From an uncultured delta proteobacterium (GTDB lineage Bacteria > Desulfobacterota > Desulfomonilia > UBA1062), in assembly GCA_963798485.1 (NCBI GenBank), contig CAWCTR010000004.1, positions 320,001 to 384,000 of the forward strand: a stretch of DNA of 64,000 nt, in the 5' to 3' direction. The translations under genes were made by a program, and so were the position numbers. Positions 24,645 to 59,785 of this stretch are shown in pieces. Every line of letters begins with the position of its first letter. The stretch's first letter is position 1. Under the pieces are notes generated by a model that saw only the letters and a program-made list of their open reading frames with translations, was not told where the DNA came from and did not search any database.

Positions 24645-24660
24645 AGCAAGGAGCATGCCA
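24645..24660 (-). promoter_or_regulatory. Sigma-54 (-24/-12) promoter of the thiolase-ACAD-ligase operon
   Basis: TGGCATGCTCCTTGCT matches TGGCAY-N5-TTGC. Confidence 0.8.
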
Positions 24661-26396: not shown

Positions 26397-26440
26397 AGCA
26401 AGGAATGTGCCAGACAAAATCTCTTTTCAACTACTTGATA
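26397..26440 (-). promoter_or_regulatory. Sigma-54 promoter plus IHF site
   Basis: TGGCACATTCCTTGCT (26412-26397); TATCAAGTAGTTG (26440-26428) fits WATCAANNNNTTR. Confidence 0.8.
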
Positions 26441-36652: not shown

Positions 36653-37807
36653 ATGACCAAAAGAGTTCTCAGGACAAAACTATGCGACATGCTGGGTATC
36701 GAATACCCTATTGTATGCGCAGGTATGGGCCCGGTTCTCATCGGCGAGCAGGCAGGTTCGCCTGTGGATCTCGTGGTGGCCGTGTCTGAAGCGGGCGGAC
36801 TCGGTGTGCTTGGCGGCAGCGGGTTTACCGTGGATGAGCTTAGGAAGGCCATCCGCAATATCAGGGCGCGCACAGGCAACCCTTTCGGCGTGGACCTCCT
36901 GCTGCCTAGGAATGTGGTTGAGGGCAAGGGAGTTGATTACGGCGATATCAAGGAGATCCCCCTGAGTGCGGCATTAAAGACCCTGCCCAAGCCTCACCAG
37001 GACTGGATAAGCAAGGTAAGAACCGAACTGGGATTGCCCGGGGTGGAAGTCATGGTGAAGCTCAATACCACTACGATGCGGCCCCTTGATGCCGTGAAGG
37101 TGTGTATCGAAGAGAAGGTCCCCCTTTTCTGCGCAGGACTGGGGAATCCGGGCTTCATGGTGGAGGAGGCACATGCGAACGGCATCAAGGTGCTCGCCAT
37201 CACCGGCAATGTGAAAAATGCCGTGCGCATGGTGGAAGCCGGGATTGACCTGCTCGTGGCCCAGGGATTTGAAGGCGGGGGCCATACAGGCAGGATAGGT
37301 ACCATGGCGCTGCTGCCCGGGGCATTGGATGCGGCAGGCAACGTCCCGGTGCTTGCAGCCGGTGGCATCGGCGACGGCAGAGGTCTTGCTGCCGCCCTTG
37401 CCATGGGGTGTGCGGGTGTCTGGGTGGGTACCAGGTTCCTGGCAACGAATGAGGGTGGCGCATTGGAGGTGAACAAACGGCGTATCCTTTCTTCCACTGA
37501 AGAAGACACCCGTGTGAGTTATGCAATAACGGGAAAGACATCACGGACGAGCTACAGCCTGTTCCATGATTTGTGGAACTCATCCGGACTTGAGCCGCTC
37601 CCATTCCCCATGCAGGTGCTGGTCTCTTCAGCCCTGTTCGCAGATTTAGTAGAGAACGGCAAAGACGAGTACATGGGTGGCTTTGCAGGTCAGGTCTCGG
37701 GTATAATCCATGATATCAAGCCTGCCAAGCAGGTGGTGGAAGATATGGTTGATGAGGCTGCCGACATACTTACCCGGGGGCTGCCGGAACGAGTGAAGGT
37801 GCAGTAA
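36653..37807 (+). CDS. Nitronate monooxygenase/FabK-like FMN oxidoreductase
   Basis: PIVCAGMG, AGGLGVLG, AQGFEGGGH, AAGGIGDGRG, GTRF; AAGGAGG RBS. Confidence 0.9.
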   Translation: MTKRVLRTKLCDMLGIEYPIVCAGMGPVLIGEQAGSPVDLVVAVSEAGGLGVLGGSGFTVDELRKAIRNIRARTGNPFGVDLLLPRNVVEGKGVDYGDIKEIPLSAALKTLPKPHQDWISKVRTELGLPGVEVMVKLNTTTMRPLDAVKVCIEEKVPLFCAGLGNPGFMVEEAHANGIKVLAITGNVKNAVRMVEAGIDLLVAQGFEGGGHTGRIGTMALLPGALDAAGNVPVLAAGGIGDGRGLAAALAMGCAGVWVGTRFLATNEGGALEVNKRRILSSTEEDTRVSYAITGKTSRTSYSLFHDLWNSSGLEPLPFPMQVLVSSALFADLVENGKDEYMGGFAGQVSGIIHDIKPAKQVVEDMVDEAADILTRGLPERVKVQ

Positions 37808-37864
37808 ATAAGTGAAGGGACATATAAGAAAAGGCCAGTAGGGTCTAAGGTGAGCTGAAACAAG

Positions 37865-37895
37865 AAGGCCCCGTCTTGCTAAAAGACGGGGCCTT
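37865..37895. terminator. Probable bidirectional terminator between convergent genes
   Basis: AAGGCCCCGTCTT-N5-AAGACGGGGCCTT perfect stem. Confidence 0.75.
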
Positions 37896-37905
37896 GTATT
37901 ACTTA

Positions 37906-39195
37906 TTAGTCTTCATCGTCATAGCCCTGACCGGGAGGGGCTTCTGATTTTATTGACCTGTTGATCCCCTTTGACAGTATGGCTGCAATGGAGAAGAGTA
38001 TTACCATTGCGCCAAAGAGGATCAGTATGATCGTGGTCAGCCATGACTGCGCTTCCTTTTCTACCTTGCCGGAAGCAATCTTGGCCTGTTCGTTGAACTT
38101 CTCAACATCCACACCCATCCCGACCCATCCGAATCCGGCCGGCTTGGGGTAATCCTTTGCATAGAAAGGTATGGGAGCATACGCCACTATCTTTGTACGG
38201 CCTTCGAATTTATAGGTCTTTATTCCCGATTTGCCCAGTGCGGCTTCTTTGGCAATCTCCGGCATGACCGGGTCAATGCCGCCAAGCTGATTGAGGTTCA
38301 GCACCTCTTCACCCTTTTTCTTCATTTCCTCAGCGGTAGCCGAGGTGATGGGTGGAACAGGTGTACCATCCTTATAGAGGCCTTCTATATGATAATCATT
38401 AGGGTGTGAGATAACAAACCCTCGGTTATCAACCATGTATGCGTAATTTCCCGTGGAGGCATCCGCCTTGATGACATAATTCGCCTCGAACGGAACGATG
38501 TTATCCGTGTATTTGGAAAGGGCCCTTGCATCAAGTGCAAGCTCTATGACCCCGGTAAAACCCTGCTTATCGAACAGCGGAGTTGCTATCCGGATAATCC
38601 CTTCGAATCTCTTCCCTTTTTCAAAATCAGCCTTGTTAACATACCACCCAGTGACAGGAGAGATATACATCTCACCCTTGTTGAGCTCTTTTGTCTTGAG
38701 GAAGTACTCCTCAGACTTATACGTTGTGTTGGCAGGATTGCTCACGTTTACCAATTCGTTTTTGGGCGCTATCTTGCCATCCTTGATCTTTATGAGCTCA
38801 TTTCCTTTGGTGTCTATGAGTGACATTTCCACATAGAGTGGCAGCTGTTCCTTTACGATGCCTGTATCTTTTTTAACCCAGAGGTCATATGTCTTGGTAT
38901 CCAAGAACTGTCTGTATGTCTCCTGGGTTGATGGAAGGATTGTGGTGGTTAACACATCCCTCTGACGTTCACGCAAGAAATCGGCGATATTCTCTGCCAG
39001 ATCAGTTGCGCGCACACTGAGCTCCTGTTGCGATTTAGCATCAAGAGCGTTCATCGTACCTTTTTTGGACAAGCCGCCAATATTGAAAATGCTGAAGGCT
39101 ATGAGGGAAGCGATCAGTAATAAGGGGATCACGACAAGCAGGAAAAATAACCTTGCAACCGTTAATAAACGAGTTCCTTTAATCGATTCAGGCAT
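37906..39195 (-). CDS. Two-TM membrane protein with extracytoplasmic dCache-like domain and no cytoplasmic output domain
   Basis: TM at both ends; Cache hallmarks (EEYF, MYISPV, IATPLFD..GFTGVI, YAYMVDNRGFVISHP, IVAYAPI, GWVG). Only a ~20-aa tail after TM2, followed by a terminator. Confidence 0.8.
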   Translation of the reverse strand: MPESIKGTRLLTVARLFFLLVVIPLLLIASLIAFSIFNIGGLSKKGTMNALDAKSQQELSVRATDLAENIADFLRERQRDVLTTTILPSTQETYRQFLDTKTYDLWVKKDTGIVKEQLPLYVEMSLIDTKGNELIKIKDGKIAPKNELVNVSNPANTTYKSEEYFLKTKELNKGEMYISPVTGWYVNKADFEKGKRFEGIIRIATPLFDKQGFTGVIELALDARALSKYTDNIVPFEANYVIKADASTGNYAYMVDNRGFVISHPNDYHIEGLYKDGTPVPPITSATAEEMKKKGEEVLNLNQLGGIDPVMPEIAKEAALGKSGIKTYKFEGRTKIVAYAPIPFYAKDYPKPAGFGWVGMGVDVEKFNEQAKIASGKVEKEAQSWLTTIILILFGAMVILFSIAAILSKGINRSIKSEAPPGQGYDDED

Positions 39196-39249
39196 TTTTT
39201 CCCCCTTATTCTTTGAATCGTTCTGTTAAAAAACCCTCTGTCGAAAAGC

Positions 39250-39627
39250 TTATCCAAACAGGAAAGTCTTGAATGGGTTGGCGAAGATGAGGATGAGCGT
39301 AATAACCAGCGCATAGATAGCGATGGATTCGGCCATGGCCATACCGACCATCATGGTCATCATGATCTTTCCCTGCGCTGCTGGGTTTCTGCCGACTGCC
39401 TCAGAAGCACCTGCTGCTGCCGCACCAATTCCTGCACCTGCCCCGATGCATCCCAGGCCGATGGCAAAGCCTGCTCCGAGCATTGCGCCTACCGAGAAGA
39501 TCACCTTGATGAGCGGATCCTGTGCAGCCGGGATTGCATCAGCTGCGAAGACACCCTGTGACGCTAGAAGCGAAAGGGCCACTGTTGCTGCAAATGTGAA
39601 CAAGATTTTGCTTGCGTTACGGAACAT
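39250..39627 (-). CDS. atpE: F0F1 ATP synthase subunit c (orphan, with signal-peptide-like N-terminal extension)
   Basis: GxGxGxG helix, loop GRNP, ion-binding AESIAIY, C-terminal ANPF; AAGGAG RBS. Confidence 0.93.
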   Translation of the reverse strand: MFRNASKILFTFAATVALSLLASQGVFAADAIPAAQDPLIKVIFSVGAMLGAGFAIGLGCIGAGAGIGAAAAGASEAVGRNPAAQGKIMMTMMVGMAMAESIAIYALVITLILIFANPFKTFLFG

Positions 39628-39704
39628 GTTTATTCTCCTTTCTTACTGATAAATTTTTCGTATGCACTTTCTTGACTGAGTCCTCATTTCTCTCTTTCAA
39701 GAAG

Positions 39705-39720
39705 AGCAATAGCTATGCCA
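39705..39720 (-). promoter_or_regulatory. Sigma-54 promoter of the atpE-Cache unit
   Basis: TGGCATAGCTATTGCT, about 80 bp upstream of the atpE start. Confidence 0.75.
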
Positions 39721-39818
39721 CCCTGTCCTAAGTATTGACATATATCCTATACCAATTTGATATTAATATCTAATTTGGCTATGGATTCTGAGTGCCACCC
39801 TCTGTGGATGAACGGCAA

Positions 39819-39839
39819 TATTAAACGTATCGTTCAATA
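39819..39839. promoter_or_regulatory. Candidate activator-binding palindrome
   Basis: TATTAAACGTATCGTTCAATA, an imperfect palindrome about 100 bp upstream of the -24 box. Confidence 0.35.
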
Positions 39840-40132
39840 GAGCCACATGAGGTTGAACAAAAAGTGCTATATGCCCCATGATCCTTATTGGATTGAATAA
39901 TGATAAGCAGATGCTGATGGTTTTACAAGGGGGAAGGTGCGAGGGATTGAGTTGGTTTGTATCCGGGCTTTAGACAAGAGAATGGGGTGATAGGTCAGGC
40001 CGAAGTAAGCATGAACCGGTAGGCAGCAGATACCCTTTTGAAGACTGGTAATATTACAGACAGTTCGTGACTTTATTGAAGCCGTATACTATAAGATAAG
40101 GAAAAGAACTTACTACTTAAAAAGGTATTGAG

Positions 40133-40303
40133 ATGAGGGAAATTGCCTCCATTGCAGCATATCTTGTATCCTGGTTATTCTGCGAACTGGTAATCGGTAT
40201 TAAAAGCGGGTTTATTACACTCATGATATCCCTGCTCTTTGCCTTTGCCATCTATGCAATGATCGCATATGCTGAACACGAAGAAGGGGATAAGAACGCG
40301 TAG
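40133..40303 (+). CDS. Unannotated 56-aa membrane protein
   Basis: MREIASIAAYLVSWLFCELVIGIKSGFITLMISLLFAFAIYAMIAYAEHEEGDKNA: two hydrophobic segments and an acidic tail; AAAGGT upstream. Confidence 0.55.
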   Translation: MREIASIAAYLVSWLFCELVIGIKSGFITLMISLLFAFAIYAMIAYAEHEEGDKNA

Positions 40304-40384
40304 AGAACCCCTCCTCTTCTTTTTTATACACAGACGAGCTTATTCATTGCATCTAAGATAAGGATAAGACAAAATCATCGAAGC

Positions 40385-42949
40385 ATGAAAAAGAAGATAT
40401 CCAGCATATACCTGAGATACTCCATATGGTTGACTGCATTAACCGTTATTGTACTGATAGTCCTTCTTGCCCTGACCGTTTATTATGTCCGCGAACGGGC
40501 CATAATAGAGCTTTTCAGCGACCAACAGGCCTTTATTGCAGACCAGACGGCATCCCACATAGAGGACTCTATTGCCAAGTGCGAGAAGGGTGTGAGCATG
40601 CTCTTGAAGCTGTTACCCTCTCAAGGGGCGGACGAGAAGAGGAAACAAGAGGAGATAAAGGACCTTTATGATGAACTCAAGGAGAACGTACTCACTATTT
40701 TGGAGATTGATGATAATGATGTTGCCGTCTACGGGTATCCGGAAAATATTTCATCAAGGATGTATGGGAACAAGATAGAAGACCTTGCCCTCTACCATGT
40801 TCTGAAGAAGATGAATCAAAGATTTATCGGGGAGATCAAAGGTCTCAATATCATGGACAACAAAAACCAGGTATCTCCAGGTAAAAAAATTGGAATCGGA
40901 CTGCCTGTTATTACCTCGGACGGCACCTATACCGGGGCGATATTGGCAGTAATCTCTCCTGAGTTACTCATCAAGCGATTCATATCCCTCGATCAAACCC
41001 GCACTATGAATACGTACTGGTTGGTTGATGAATCGGGCACCATAATCTATCATCCCGACCAGGTCAGTATTGGGAAAAACATTGCGGAACTGACGCCTGA
41101 GGGAAATACGCCTTTTAAGATGTTTTCCTACACTTCGAAACACTACAGCGAGATGATTCTTTACCAGAAAAACAAAGAGGAAAAGTGCATTATTGCCTAT
41201 GCCCCCATTAGCATAGGCATTGCCAAGTGGTGGATCGTTCTTGTTACCCCCTATGAAGATGTTTTAAAACCTATTCGCAGTGCATCATTAAACATCATCC
41301 TCGGTGCAATAGGACTTATTGCAGTTGTCATCATCACCGCCATATCCATCGCACGTTCCGATGTAAAACGATTGCGGCTCAAAGAAGAGCTTAAAAGGCT
41401 CAAGGAGCGGGAGGTATGGCAGGGGAAGCTTTTACGGGAGAAGATGACCATTGAGGGGATCGTTGAAGGATCTCCGGTCCCCATGTTTGTGCTGGATCAA
41501 AATCATACGGTTATCTTGTGGAATCGCGCATGCACTGATCTTACGGGGTACAGTGCAGCCGAGATGATCAATACGGATAATTACTACAAGCCATTCTATG
41601 ATGACAAACGGCCATTCCTCGCCGATTTCATCATCGATCATAATGTGGAAGACTTTGAAGCATTTTACGGAGAAGGCAAGGTCTTGAAATCCGAATCCAT
41701 TAAAGGGGCATATGAGGCGGTAAAATTTTTTAAAAACCTAAGCGGTAAAGAACGACACCTGCATTTCCTTGCTGCGCCGATCTTCGATGAAAAAGGCGAA
41801 ATTGTTGCCGCCATAGAAACCTTTCTCGATGTATCAAAAGAAGTGGAGCTCACGAGGAACCTCCAGGAATATGCTGAAACCCTTCAAAACGAGCTGGATG
41901 AGAACATCAGGCTTACAAAAGAGGTGGAAGAACTCTATAGTTATCTCCAGAGCATCTTAAACAGTCTGCCTGATAAGATTTATGAACTGAACAAGGACGG
42001 CATTATCAATTATGTCAGCAGGCAGATACGCAGAGGCACGTACGATCCCAAGGGAAAACACTTCACGGAATATGTGGCCCCGGAGCACAGGGCTTATGCC
42101 ATCTCCAAATGGGAGGATGTAAATAAGGGCATTTTCAAGCCTTATGAGCTCGAGATGGTAACCAATAAAGGTGCAAAGAGGCACCTCCTGATGACGCCAA
42201 GCCCTGTAAAGGGTACAGACAGATTCGTCTTGGTGGAGCGTGATATTACCGAACTGAAAGACCTTGAGAAAAAATATTATGAGAGCCAGAAACTTGCAGC
42301 CATAGGCCAATTATCAGCCGGGATCGCCCATGAAGTGAGAAACCCCCTTTCCTCGATAAAAATGAGCCTGCAGATTTTGGAAAAACGCATGCAGCCCGAG
42401 GGCAATGACCTTAAGCGATTCAAGATTGCCCAAAGAGAGGTCGAGCATCTTGAGAAGCTTGTGAGTGATGTACTCATTTATGCAAAACCCACAGCCCCCC
42501 ATAAAGACCTTTGCGATTTAAGGTCAATCATTGAGAGTGCCCTTGCCATGGTTGAAAAATCACTTAAAGACAAGGATATTGATCTGCAGAAAATATATAC
42601 AGACGGCAATGATGCTATCCCTGTGGATTCACAAATGATCAAACAAGCGCTTATCAATATTTTCCAGAATGCTATCGATGCAATGGAGCCGCAGGGAAGA
42701 CTCTCTATCTCTTTGCGCAAAGAAAATGAATCTCTCCTCCTAGAGGTTGAAGATAATGGTTGCGGGATAGATGAGGAAGACATCCCCTACCTGTTCAATC
42801 CTTTCTTTACCAAGAAGAATTATGGAACCGGCCTCGGACTTACCCAGGTGAAGAAGATCATTGAACAGCACAATGGTGAAATAGAGATAATAAGCAAAAA
42901 AGGTTCAGGCACACGATTTATTATTACCCTTCCGAAGGGTAATACTTAG
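40385..42949 (+). CDS. Sensor histidine kinase (TM-Cache-like-TM-PAS-PAS-HisKA-HATPase)
   Basis: AGIAHEVRNPL H-box; NAIDAM, DNGCGI, FNPFFTKK, GTGLGL; PAS motifs WNRACTDLTGYS. Confidence 0.93.
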   Translation: MKKKISSIYLRYSIWLTALTVIVLIVLLALTVYYVRERAIIELFSDQQAFIADQTASHIEDSIAKCEKGVSMLLKLLPSQGADEKRKQEEIKDLYDELKENVLTILEIDDNDVAVYGYPENISSRMYGNKIEDLALYHVLKKMNQRFIGEIKGLNIMDNKNQVSPGKKIGIGLPVITSDGTYTGAILAVISPELLIKRFISLDQTRTMNTYWLVDESGTIIYHPDQVSIGKNIAELTPEGNTPFKMFSYTSKHYSEMILYQKNKEEKCIIAYAPISIGIAKWWIVLVTPYEDVLKPIRSASLNIILGAIGLIAVVIITAISIARSDVKRLRLKEELKRLKEREVWQGKLLREKMTIEGIVEGSPVPMFVLDQNHTVILWNRACTDLTGYSAAEMINTDNYYKPFYDDKRPFLADFIIDHNVEDFEAFYGEGKVLKSESIKGAYEAVKFFKNLSGKERHLHFLAAPIFDEKGEIVAAIETFLDVSKEVELTRNLQEYAETLQNELDENIRLTKEVEELYSYLQSILNSLPDKIYELNKDGIINYVSRQIRRGTYDPKGKHFTEYVAPEHRAYAISKWEDVNKGIFKPYELEMVTNKGAKRHLLMTPSPVKGTDRFVLVERDITELKDLEKKYYESQKLAAIGQLSAGIAHEVRNPLSSIKMSLQILEKRMQPEGNDLKRFKIAQREVEHLEKLVSDVLIYAKPTAPHKDLCDLRSIIESALAMVEKSLKDKDIDLQKIYTDGNDAIPVDSQMIKQALINIFQNAIDAMEPQGRLSISLRKENESLLLEVEDNGCGIDEEDIPYLFNPFFTKKNYGTGLGLTQVKKIIEQHNGEIEIISKKGSGTRFIITLPKGNT

Positions 42950-43016
42950 AAGATGAACGCACAGACACAAGAGAATATGATCAAATCAAGCAACAAGGAA
43001 AAAAAGGGCCCGTAGC

Positions 43017-44396
43017 ATGCCGAAGATACTTGTCATTGATGATGATAGCTCTATTCGCGAGACACTGGATCTCTATCTGACGGAAGAAGGGTACGATGTC
43101 TATACTGCGCCCACAGGAACGGACGGACTCAACACGTTCACACAACAATCACCTGATGTAGTCATCCTGGATATCAGGCTTCCCGATGTAAACGGCTTTA
43201 TGATCCTTGAAGACCTCAGAGAAGAGGATGAGAACGTAAAGGTCATCATGATCACTGCCCATCATGACATGGAATCCACCATTAAGGCCATGAAAGAGGG
43301 TGCCTTTGACTACATACACAAACCCGTGGATGTCGATGAACTCGATATCGCCATTAAAAAGGCCATCCATGCATTGGAGATGGAGAAAAAGATAAAGGGT
43401 CTTCTTGTTGAGTCCTCACGGGATTACAAGGTCGGCGACATCATTGGCGAAGGCCCCCGGATGAGGGAGATATTCAAGACCATAGGTGTCGTATCTCAAA
43501 GCAGGACCCCGGTGCTTATTCAAGGCGAAAGCGGAACAGGCAAAGAACTCATTGCCAAGGTGATTCATACAAACACCGCGGCAGATGAGCCGTATATTGC
43601 AATAAACTGCTCTGCAATTGTTGAGACCCTGCTTGAATCGGAGCTGTTCGGCCATGAGAAGGGGTCGTTTACCGGGGCCATCACGCGGAAACCCGGCAAA
43701 TTCGAACTGGCCCGCTATGGCACGGTATTCCTCGATGAAATAAGCGAGATGTCCTTGAATCTTCAGGCAAAGCTCCTTCGGGTCCTTCAGGAAAGGGAAT
43801 TCGAGCGTGTAGGCGGCAAAGACCGAATCAAGGTAAATGCCCGGGTCATTGCAGCCACCAACAAAGACCTCAAGGCAATGGCAAAAGAAGGGCTGTTCAG
43901 GGATGATCTGTACTACCGGCTGAACATCGTAACCATATTTATTCCGCCGCTCAGGGAAAGAAGGGAAGACCTCCAGCCGCTCATCAATTATTTATTATCC
44001 AAGATCAACTTCGATCTCCATAAGCATATCGCCGGGGTTTCCGATGATGTGCTCGAGATCTTCAAACACTACAGCTGGCCCGGTAACATCCGGGAGCTTG
44101 AAAACCTCCTCGTTCGTGCAGCAGTGGTTGCCAAGGGGCAGGTCTTGATAAAGAGCGACTTTCCCGACTTGAACGAGACTTCCGGGTTCCAAAAAACAAG
44201 GGAACCCGAGGTTGATTGCAGCCATGACGCCTCGGGCAGAATCCTCACCCTTGATGAAGTTGAAGAGATGCATATAAGGAAAGTGATCAAAGAAACAAAA
44301 AAGAACAAGGGTGAGGTCTGTGATATCCTGGGGATCTCCAGGCCGACATTCGAGAGAAAGCTTGAGAAATACAATATCCAGTTCGAGCGGGACTAG
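43017..44396 (+). CDS. NtrC/AtoC-family sigma-54 response regulator
   Basis: Receiver domain (IDDD, LDIRLPD, KP), GESGTGKE, GSFTGA, WPGNIREL, Fis-type HTH. Confidence 0.95.
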   Translation: MPKILVIDDDSSIRETLDLYLTEEGYDVYTAPTGTDGLNTFTQQSPDVVILDIRLPDVNGFMILEDLREEDENVKVIMITAHHDMESTIKAMKEGAFDYIHKPVDVDELDIAIKKAIHALEMEKKIKGLLVESSRDYKVGDIIGEGPRMREIFKTIGVVSQSRTPVLIQGESGTGKELIAKVIHTNTAADEPYIAINCSAIVETLLESELFGHEKGSFTGAITRKPGKFELARYGTVFLDEISEMSLNLQAKLLRVLQEREFERVGGKDRIKVNARVIAATNKDLKAMAKEGLFRDDLYYRLNIVTIFIPPLRERREDLQPLINYLLSKINFDLHKHIAGVSDDVLEIFKHYSWPGNIRELENLLVRAAVVAKGQVLIKSDFPDLNETSGFQKTREPEVDCSHDASGRILTLDEVEEMHIRKVIKETKKNKGEVCDILGISRPTFERKLEKYNIQFERD

Positions 44397-59490: not shown

Positions 59491-59785
59491 CGCACCACCC
59501 CTTTCCACCCCGATGGGGTATGTACTATAAAAAGAAACAGCTTCAATGTGATAGAGAGCAATGTCCATGCCATTAAAATTAGTATATATATTCAATATAT
59601 TAAACACAATGCACTGGGTAAAACAGTGGGCGAGAGAATATGTTTACCTATACCTGGGATAATTAATTACCACTATCGATTTAATTATATAATATTAGAC
59701 AGTTCAACGCGTTATTTTAAGGCACATTAGACTGCTATATTTAAGTGATCTATATTCCATGCATTGCATGTCTCTTCATGTCTCT

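Follow-up and report, generated by a model that had tools for sequence, protein, structure and literature searches.

An extra F-type c-subunit gene paired with a Cache-only membrane protein behind a predicted sigma-54 promoter in Desulfomonilia and Syntrophales

Introduction

The c-ring of ATP synthases fixes the coupling ion and the ion-to-ATP ratio of the enzyme, and known variation in these rotor parameters is limited to differences fixed between species and to the Acetobacterium woodii hybrid ring. Whether Smithella, Syntrophus, their Desulfomonilia neighbors and other syntrophic anaerobes can grow at all depends on these parameters. The present work concerns a locus from a syntroph-like anaerobe, an uncultured delta proteobacterium of the Desulfomonilia (assembly GCA_963798485.1). 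The window, a stretch of 64,000 nucleotides (positions 320,001 to 384,000 of contig CAWCTR010000004.1), holds an extra F-type c-subunit gene followed directly by a gene for a membrane-anchored double-Cache protein devoid of any cytoplasmic output domain, hereafter the Cache-only protein. A small membrane protein, a sensor histidine kinase and an NtrC-type activator are encoded divergently. These five genes form a self-contained, conserved module. That it supplies an alternative rotor subunit on induction, with a periplasmic partner dedicated to it, is a proposal that we regard as about evenly balanced.

In the A. woodii hybrid ring, composition sets the number of ion sites, and the c genes are reportedly located inside the atp operon. 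This Na+ F1Fo enzyme, whose ring combines c1 with c2/c3 (PDB 4bem), is like the module as proposed here in drawing on more than one c gene product for a single enzyme, and the likeness extends to relatives of the present genome that carry multi-hairpin c subunits with most hairpins lacking the carboxylate. The module c differs in being an ordinary single hairpin that retains its Glu, in being encoded outside any atp operon, in its own predicted sigma-54 two-component control and in always being followed by the Cache-only gene. Multiple c genes are also familiar from eukaryotes; mammals have three, differentially regulated, and we know of no companion sensor-like membrane protein or dedicated two-component system for such paralogs. 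In Podospora anserina, two c paralogs with condition-dependent expression are reported to serve one ATP synthase (PMC4956034). Unlike the module gene, eukaryotic c paralogs are nuclear-encoded.

Parallels for the Cache-only protein come from two directions. AtpI (UncI), a membrane protein encoded beside c, has been proposed to help assemble the ring. The canonical locus of the present genome likewise has atpI together with an atpZ-like gene, whereas both extra c genes have a Cache-only gene instead. However, AtpI is small, polytopic and without a periplasmic domain, while the Cache-only protein carries a Cache domain of ~345 residues and bears no PF03899 similarity. In the V-ATPase, the accessory proteins ATP6AP1/Ac45 and ATP6AP2/PRR (Voa1 in yeast) cap the c-ring with large extracytoplasmic domains and place transmembrane helices inside the ring, as visualized by cryo-EM. 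They provide an architectural precedent for a Cache-only accessory subunit, to be taken as a lead only, since they share no sequence relation with it, belong to another, eukaryotic enzyme class and do not possess ligand-binding Cache domains. The divergent genes, finally, follow the architecture of NtrC systems of the AtoS/AtoC type, with a sensor kinase, a REC-AAA+-HTH activator, upstream repeats and a -24/-12 promoter, but differ in their N-terminal dCache sensor, small membrane partner and target genes, and score far below the equivalog cut-offs. A full-text literature search found no description of a c subunit that is linked with a Cache protein or controlled by a sigma-54 two-component system, and two further papers (PMC1950547; bioRxiv 10.64898/2026.10.01.756066) bear no relation to the module. 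As far as can be told, then, the parts are all of known kinds, and their combination, strict conservation and duplication are undescribed.

Locus organization and conservation

The extra c gene (39250-39627, minus strand; 125 aa, PF00137) and the Cache-only gene (37906-39195, minus; 429 aa, dCache_1) are separated by 54 bp from the stop of the former to the start of the latter. Upstream of the pair lie a consensus match to a sigma-54 -24/-12 promoter, TGGCATAGCTATTGCT (39705-39720, minus), and a conserved block forming a candidate upstream activator site, GTTCAAC-N13-TTGAAC-N5-GTTTAA (39821-39858, minus). The divergent operon on the plus strand opens with a small open reading frame (ORF) for a 56-aa, two-helix membrane protein (40133-40303), continues with a sensor histidine kinase of 854 aa (40385-42949; dCache_1, two PAS domains, HisKA and HATPase_c) and ends with an NtrC-family sigma-54 activator of 459 aa (43017-44396; REC-Sigma54_activat-HTH_8). 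A bidirectional, intrinsic terminator-like hairpin with a 13-bp stem and 8 G-C pairs (37865-37895, both strands) closes the c/Cache-only operon; it can also terminate the convergent upstream gene. An Rfam scan of 37700-40500 returned 0 matches up to E = 1. An earlier note on this DNA, drawn up from its letters and ORFs, had described an orphan atpE behind a consensus -24/-12 promoter, an output-less dCache gene 54 bp on, a terminator, and a divergent 56-aa membrane ORF with a Cache/PAS kinase and an NtrC-type activator. The window sequence, its ORFs and a Pfam scan bear out every one of these elements at the positions it gave. The word "orphan" holds within the window, where no further atp gene was found, but not for the genome, in which four c genes occur.

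Loci were collected from the 61 genomes described below and from a scan of one genome per species, in which the best 80 of 245 relatives were used; these fall in Desulfomonilia and Syntrophales and include assemblies labeled Smithella and Syntrophus. Once identical copies had been removed from both sets of loci, 84 distinct loci of the window type (group 1) remained, alongside a second set, group 2, that resembles a paralogous cassette on contig C32 of the same genome. The pairing of the two genes is strict. Wherever a group-1 locus offers at least 500 nt of upstream sequence, the gene immediately preceding Cache-only on the same strand is a c gene (76/76), and the eight group-1 loci without one all start too near a contig edge; in group 2 the arrangement recurs in 6/6. 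The regulatory genes are nearly as constant, small ORF, kinase and regulator all being present in 32 of the 35 group-1 loci with at least 6 kb upstream. Two of these 35 (L063 and L093) hold no regulatory gene, leaving the kinase syntenic in 33/35, and L112 lacks a detectable small ORF. The synteny of atpE-Cache with small ORF-kinase-regulator, which the earlier note had suggested checking, is hence conserved across two orders. Amino acid identity between the window proteins and their counterparts in Syntrophales loci is highest for the regulator (72-78%), followed by the Cache-only protein (54-62%) and the kinase (about 45%). In one metagenome-assembled genome, two contigs (L063 and L055) each hold a group-1 c/Cache pair behind the same promoter; one copy is accompanied by the two-component system, and the other has none within 7 kb and a Cache gene that appears as two tblastn pieces.

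The extra c subunit and its paralogs

The module c is a two-helix hairpin (PF00137, 62.6 bits against a cut-off of 24, residues 50-113) that follows an N-terminal extension. By eye, this extension resembles a Sec signal peptide, with a positive stretch, a hydrophobic stretch and a VFA-AD sequence. The hallmarks of a working rotor subunit are retained throughout: across 26 module and group-2 c sequences, G57, G59, G62, G68, the loop G79-R80-N81-P82, E100-S101, Y105 and N117-P118 are invariant. The glycine motif of helix 1, the R-N-P loop and the helix-2 carboxylate align with those of the solved c subunits 4bem, 2wie and 4mjn, chain 4bem_J being the best solved match (E = 2.7e-24). A score of 68.1 bits against TIGR03322 (alt_F1F0_F0_C), below the cut-off of 130.85, separates it from the N-ATPase c subunits.

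Two positions bear on ion specificity, which a sequence by itself does not fix. The Na+ signature, worked out in Ilyobacter tartaricus, consists of a Gln or Glu in helix 1 and Glu-Ser/Thr-Thr...Tyr in helix 2. The helix-2 motif of the module c is E100-S101-I102-A103-I104-Y105, so that Ser and Tyr of the signature are present and the Thr position is occupied by Ile. At the helix-1 ligand position, where A. woodii and Spirulina c subunits have Gln, the module c again has Ile, in agreement with the earlier reading of "ESI" without the signature Gln. The same position holds Gln in the canonical c of family f1, Glu in the N-type c, and Met in both the group-2 c and the housekeeping-like c of Syntrophales. 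Replacement by Ile of the Gln found in the family's housekeeping c makes a H+-type module c plausible.

The source assembly (4.3 Mb in 32 contigs, 97.5% complete, 7% contamination) contains four PF00137 genes above the cut-off, two a subunits (contigs C7 and C21), two gamma subunits (C28 and C21) and one rpoN. Contig C7 carries the canonical locus, with an atpZ-like gene, atpI, atpB and atpE. On contig C21 lies an N-type operon (atpDC-Q-R-B-E-F-A-G), which runs beta, epsilon, two small ORFs, a, c, b, alpha and gamma and whose c passes TIGR03322 with 151 bits against 130.85. The fourth gene, on contig C32, is a second orphan c, 58% identical to that of the window. Contamination is an unlikely source of this multiplicity, since the count of four recurs in six assemblies of the same genus (G001-G003, G007, G008 and G011). 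Given a separate canonical atpI-atpB-atpE locus and a complete N-ATPase operon, the window c must be an extra copy; the possibility left by the earlier note, that it is the only atpE of its genome, is thereby removed.

Of five Syntrophales genomes checked, three encode a single a subunit, and the other two also encode an a of the N-type. Each of the five has the module c and one housekeeping-like c apart from atpB, to which two of the single-a genomes add a V-type proteolipid; two of the five have an N-type c. In one of them (G065) the module c and the housekeeping-like c are the only c genes, and therefore the module c, if it works in an ATPase there, must serve the F-type enzyme.

The tree of c paralogs that the earlier note had proposed, a maximum-likelihood tree of 58 c sequences, places the module c in a clade of its own (support 98/99) and the group-2 c in another (85/80). 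Both group with the housekeeping-like c of Syntrophales (81/87). The atpB-linked c of two Desulfomonilia families stand apart (98/98 and 98/97), as do the N-type c (100/100). The tree took every third of 69 distinct module c rows (23) and omitted L021, L051 and the multi-hairpin loci L156-L158; its deep branches are weak because the protein is short. One of the omitted loci, L021:706-2538 (the same genome as L051), has c and Cache in a single frame, with the last five c residues replaced and the 3' end out of frame. This apparent gene fusion was taken as probably an assembly error or a broken copy, because the Cache domain of a true fusion would have the opposite topology and because the 3' end is frame-shifted.

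The promoter and upstream repeat

The -24/-12 element recurs at a conserved position. A sigma-54 motif matching 9 or more of the 11 consensus positions occurs 87-134 nt ahead of the c ATG in 72 of the 74 group-1 upstream regions, and the two exceptions (L080 and L085) retain 8 and 7 positions, respectively. None of the five group-2 upstream regions has it (0/5). Anchoring the alignment on this motif brings out, 100-140 bp ahead of the -24 element, a block that is conserved and reads GTTCAA, 13-15 nt, TTGAAC, 5 nt, GTTYAA. In the 4.3-Mb genome this three-site pattern occurs once, at 39821-39858. Its strict form is present in 39 of the 74 group-1 regions and a relaxed three-site form in 54/74, against 0.5 in mononucleotide shuffles; the relaxed form is likewise missing from the group-2 regions (0/5). 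The pattern is best explained by an NtrC-type activator dedicated to this one target. With GG and GC elements at the canonical spacing, a conserved position, an rpoN gene in the genome and a candidate activator site upstream, the element at 39705-39720 is a predicted sigma-54 promoter, from which transcription would start near 39693-39695. The promoter singled out in the earlier note has thus, together with the repeat, been phylogenetically footprinted.

The window as a whole is rich in such sequences. TGGCAY-N5-TTGCW matches it 4 times against 0.17 expected, a count reached by 0 of 100 shuffles. The three further exact matches, all on the minus strand, lie at 24645-24660, 26397-26412 and 59557-59572, and the window may accordingly hold further sigma-54 promoters.

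A second cassette beside rnf genes

The orphan c on contig C32 is followed by a 431-aa protein that is 36% identical to the window Cache-only protein over 425 residues (E = 7e-99). In this genome the cassette (L007:4423-10020) stands opposite a PHO4 phosphate transporter gene, with NfnA- and NfnB-like genes after it. Among 15 group-2 loci (L007 and L159-L172), a 522-aa MshEN/T2SSE-like gene precedes the cassette in 11, and rnf genes, recognized by the Pfam families Rnf-Nqr, Fe-S RnfB-like, RnfC_N/Complex1_51K, NQR2_RnfD_RnfE and FMN_bind, lie directly downstream in 8. The ORF filter of this survey hid some frames, such that c is visible in 12/15 and Cache in 14/15. No two-component gene was found among the conserved neighbors in these 15 loci. 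A cassette with neither sigma-54 promoter nor two-component system ties the Cache-only protein to the c subunit and not to the kinase. By this comparison, the predicted sigma-54 circuit is an addition to one of two cassettes, and their setting is membrane bioenergetics.

The Cache-only protein

The 429-residue protein consists of a short N-terminus, a first transmembrane segment, a periplasmic double-Cache domain of ~345 residues, a second transmembrane segment and a tail of ~20 residues running from GINRSI to DDED. The hydrophobic segments, read from the sequence, fall at about 12-37 and 385-409. dCache_1 (PF02743) scores 53.2 bits against 45 over residues 51-344 and is the sole Pfam domain; no cytoplasmic output module, such as HAMP, HisKA/HATPase, MCPsignal or GGDEF, was found by Pfam, and no NCBIfam family covers the protein. 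A profile search of the PDB with a 67-row alignment gave 0 matches at E <= 0.01 and noise only up to E = 10, so that no ligand can be transferred from a solved sensor. The ESM Atlas neighbors of one homologue (P0004) are all generic dCache or MCP-like PDC clusters. The protein belongs to a large family, 787 clusters of proteins of about 430 aa reaching E <= 1e-5 among the 8000 candidates scored in a separate search. The 120 listed relatives are 373-458 aa long and are named only "cache domain-containing", "PDC sensor domain-containing" or hypothetical.

The protein was matched in 45 of the 61 genomes searched (G000 included) and in 35 of the 36 of its own family. In the neighboring family f2, 9 of 24 genomes have a match, there within open frames of 828-1418 aa. 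In the f2 matches that were opened, the similarity to the Cache-only protein (35-37% identity) falls at the N-terminus of a kinase of 1053 aa, Cache-HAMP-GAF-PAS-HisKA-HATPase in layout, and a gene for an NtrC-type regulator comes next; such kinase-fused forms were seen in f2 only. Beyond the second transmembrane segment, the Cache-only proteins keep a conserved RGIxRSI sequence and a tail that is short and acidic. These two features and the existence of kinase-fused relatives suggest descent from a truncated sensor kinase. Descent as a copy of the adjacent kinase sensor was considered and rejected, the similarity between the two being generic (E = 0.021).

The periplasmic domain is much better conserved than the sensor of the neighboring kinase. 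Over the same 29-30 loci, mean column identity is 0.62 for the Cache-only periplasmic domain versus 0.29 for the kinase sensor, and the conservation of so large a domain argues for a specific ligand or protein partner, whichever it may be. A related argument, that high conservation of the transmembrane segments signals intramembrane contacts, was dropped: the first segment of the Cache-only protein does reach 0.73 against 0.62 for its periplasmic domain, but the kinase segments (0.49 and 0.44) exceed their sensor (0.29) as well, and hence the comparison does not discriminate.

The divergent two-component genes

The 56-aa ORF is a real gene, given that 19 orthologs, which align without gaps in their core, share nine invariant residues (E3, Y10, W14, C17, S25, G26, L30, S33 and A37). 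Searches of these orthologs against Pfam (E up to 10) and of NCBIfam gave scattered, chance-level matches and no relation to AtpI or AtpZ. The kinase is laid out as a transmembrane segment, dCache_1 (periplasmic part at about residues 36-295), a second transmembrane segment, two PAS domains, HisKA and HATPase_c; its best NCBIfam model is AtoS, at 248 bits far below the cut-off of 646. The regulator (Response_reg, 110 bits; Sigma54_activat, 228.5 bits; HTH_8, 34.8 bits) likewise falls short of its best model, AtoC (479.8 bits against 714), and contains, by eye in the translation, the GSFTGA loop that contacts sigma-54.

Proposed mechanism and alternative explanations

We infer a series of biochemical steps that would join these elements. 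The dCache-PAS-PAS kinase, probably together with the 56-aa membrane protein, would sense a signal and phosphorylate the NtrC-type activator, which would bind the GTTCAA/TTGAAC repeats at 39821-39858 and open the sigma-54 promoter at 39705-39720. Transcription of the two-gene operon would then yield the extra F-type c and the two-transmembrane double-Cache protein without output domain. This predicted regulatory logic, leading from kinase to activator, repeat, sigma-54 promoter and two-gene operon, is well supported by the footprinting and the gene order. The extra c would in turn enter the F1Fo c-ring, alone or mixed with housekeeping c, and rotor properties would change on induction. Entry into the F1Fo ring is probably the simplest reading because the rotor features are all kept and because the housekeeping F-type a subunit and F1 are the sole partners on offer, both in the source genome and in those of Syntrophales that were surveyed. 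The Cache-only protein would be a dedicated partner of the c isoform and not part of the kinase circuit, and may act either as a ring-specific assembly or stabilizing factor or as a periplasmic ligand-binding accessory of the ring.

Several observations weigh against this proposal. The module c scores 43.3 bits against the ATP_synt_c equivalog TIGR01260, just under the cut-off of 43.95, where the canonical c of the same genome reaches 50.7 and the C32 paralog 43.9. Some loci (for example L058 and L075) have the c/Cache pair, promoter and repeat but no adjacent two-component system, and adjacency is therefore not obligatory. A conserved, ligand-binding-type domain of ~345 residues exceeds what an assembly chaperone needs and suggests a more specific role. 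Lastly, twenty sequencing runs hold part of the stretch, of which one (X20, share 0.05) is on record as RNA. Compared at 90% likeness, its contigs, 90-95% alike and from a relative, match in part the kinase gene, the regulator gene and the small ORF, along with a single stretch of the Cache gene; the interval 39126-40009 is without a contig. The gap over the c gene may be listed on the debit side, yet says nothing either way: contigs of this sort do not reveal where transcription begins, on which strand or how strongly, and DNA can be present in an RNA library.

A bolder version of the accessory role, which we hold to be unlikely, makes the Cache-only protein a new subunit of the ATP synthase. 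Its transmembrane segments would dock on or inside the cognate ring while the double-Cache domain binds a metabolite, and an extracellular small molecule would directly control assembly, ion access or rotation. If this were true, syntrophs near the thermodynamic limit would have two ligand-coupled rotor isoforms, one induced through sigma-54 and the other linked to Rnf. Equally unlikely in our view is a membrane complex free of the ATP synthase, in which a ring of the c paralog is capped, plugged or gated by its partner as a ligand-controlled device for conducting or sensing ions. Such a complex would account for the strict pairing in both paralog groups (76/76 and 6/6), for neither cassette being accompanied by an a-subunit or F1 gene, and for a Cache-only protein that has no output domain to signal through and whose domain is conserved at 0.62, with the kinase sensor at 0.29, as expected for a fixed ligand or partner. 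The c sequences themselves speak against it. The Glu and the packing glycines are invariant, and so is the cytoplasmic RNP loop, the site at which known enzymes engage gamma and epsilon; a ring without F1 would not need that loop. Nor do the alignments, inspected by eye, show a conserved charged transmembrane residue in the Cache-only protein that could act as the stator Arg, and we know of no free-standing bacterial c-ring device.

The earlier note had cast the extra c as the output of the circuit and the Cache-only protein as a co-receptor or feedback partner; as such, the protein would pair with the kinase sensor or compete for its ligand. The extra copy, the conserved neighborhood, the footprinted promoter and the presence of rpoN support the part of this reading that concerns the c gene and its promoter. 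The role it gave the Cache-only protein has fared worse and strikes us as decidedly improbable. In its favor, the protein would be co-induced from a promoter presumably controlled by the kinase and regulator, and its gene divergently adjoins that of the kinase in 33 of the 35 loci whose flanks are long enough. Its origin from a kinase sensor is clear from its 35-37% identity to the N-termini of the 1053-aa f2 kinases, and it keeps the short juxtamembrane RGIxRSI. Against this stand the paralogous group-2 cassette, which manages without the sigma-54 promoter (0/5) or a conserved two-component gene in 15 loci, the marginal similarity to the adjacent kinase sensor (E = 0.021) and the very different rates at which the two sensor domains evolve. 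Least credible of all is a redundant or decaying duplicate with chance neighbors, an idea to which the TIGR01260 score slightly under the cut-off lends some color. An intact frame, functional residues invariant across two orders, the conserved gene order, promoter and repeat, and a well-supported clade of its own refute it in practice.

What makes the proposal of an inducible rotor subunit worth pursuing is that a whole lineage keeps extra c genes outside its atp operons, one with its own signaling circuit and one beside rnf, each with a sensor-like periplasmic protein. Should the extra c enter the F1Fo ring, it would represent a regulated change of rotor composition in bacteria; should the Cache-only protein bind the ring, an F-type ATPase would for the first time be seen to have a regulator or assembly factor that is periplasmic and binds a ligand. 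Testable handles are offered by the defined promoter with its candidate activator site, by the two soluble Cache domains and by carriers in Smithella and Syntrophus assemblies.

Other c genes in the lineage

Matches to c number 4-11 per genome in family f1 and 1-2 in f2; the lineage clearly varies its rotors. In the genus of the source genome, detachment extends at times to the housekeeping c: in G005 (L141; C43:2200-5400), a stretch of 3.2 kb has a c of canonical type but no atpB, and this c shares 87.5% identity with the atpB-linked one of the source genome. In two Syntrophales assemblies (L069:809-2886 and L070:844-2967), the only F-type a-subunit gene adjoins the regulator gene of the module, with no room for a c gene after it and the housekeeping-like c on another contig. 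At three other Syntrophales loci (L083:4979-5194, L085:3783-3998 and L094:8618-8773), the housekeeping-like c is convergent with, and directly downstream of, the Cache-only gene.

Some relatives of the same family, though not the source genome, possess a further atp operon (L156:1152-5999 in G021:C137; L157 in G016:C297; L158 in G022:C41). At L156 it runs in the order atpZ-like, atpI-like, a, a 483-aa six-hairpin c, a single-hairpin c, two b, delta and alpha. The single-hairpin c has a Glu in helix 1 and ESTGIY in helix 2. We know of no bacterial six-hairpin c described before. With the helix-2 Glu kept in its first hairpin only and Gln in the other five, it resembles the principle of A. woodii c1 taken to an extreme.

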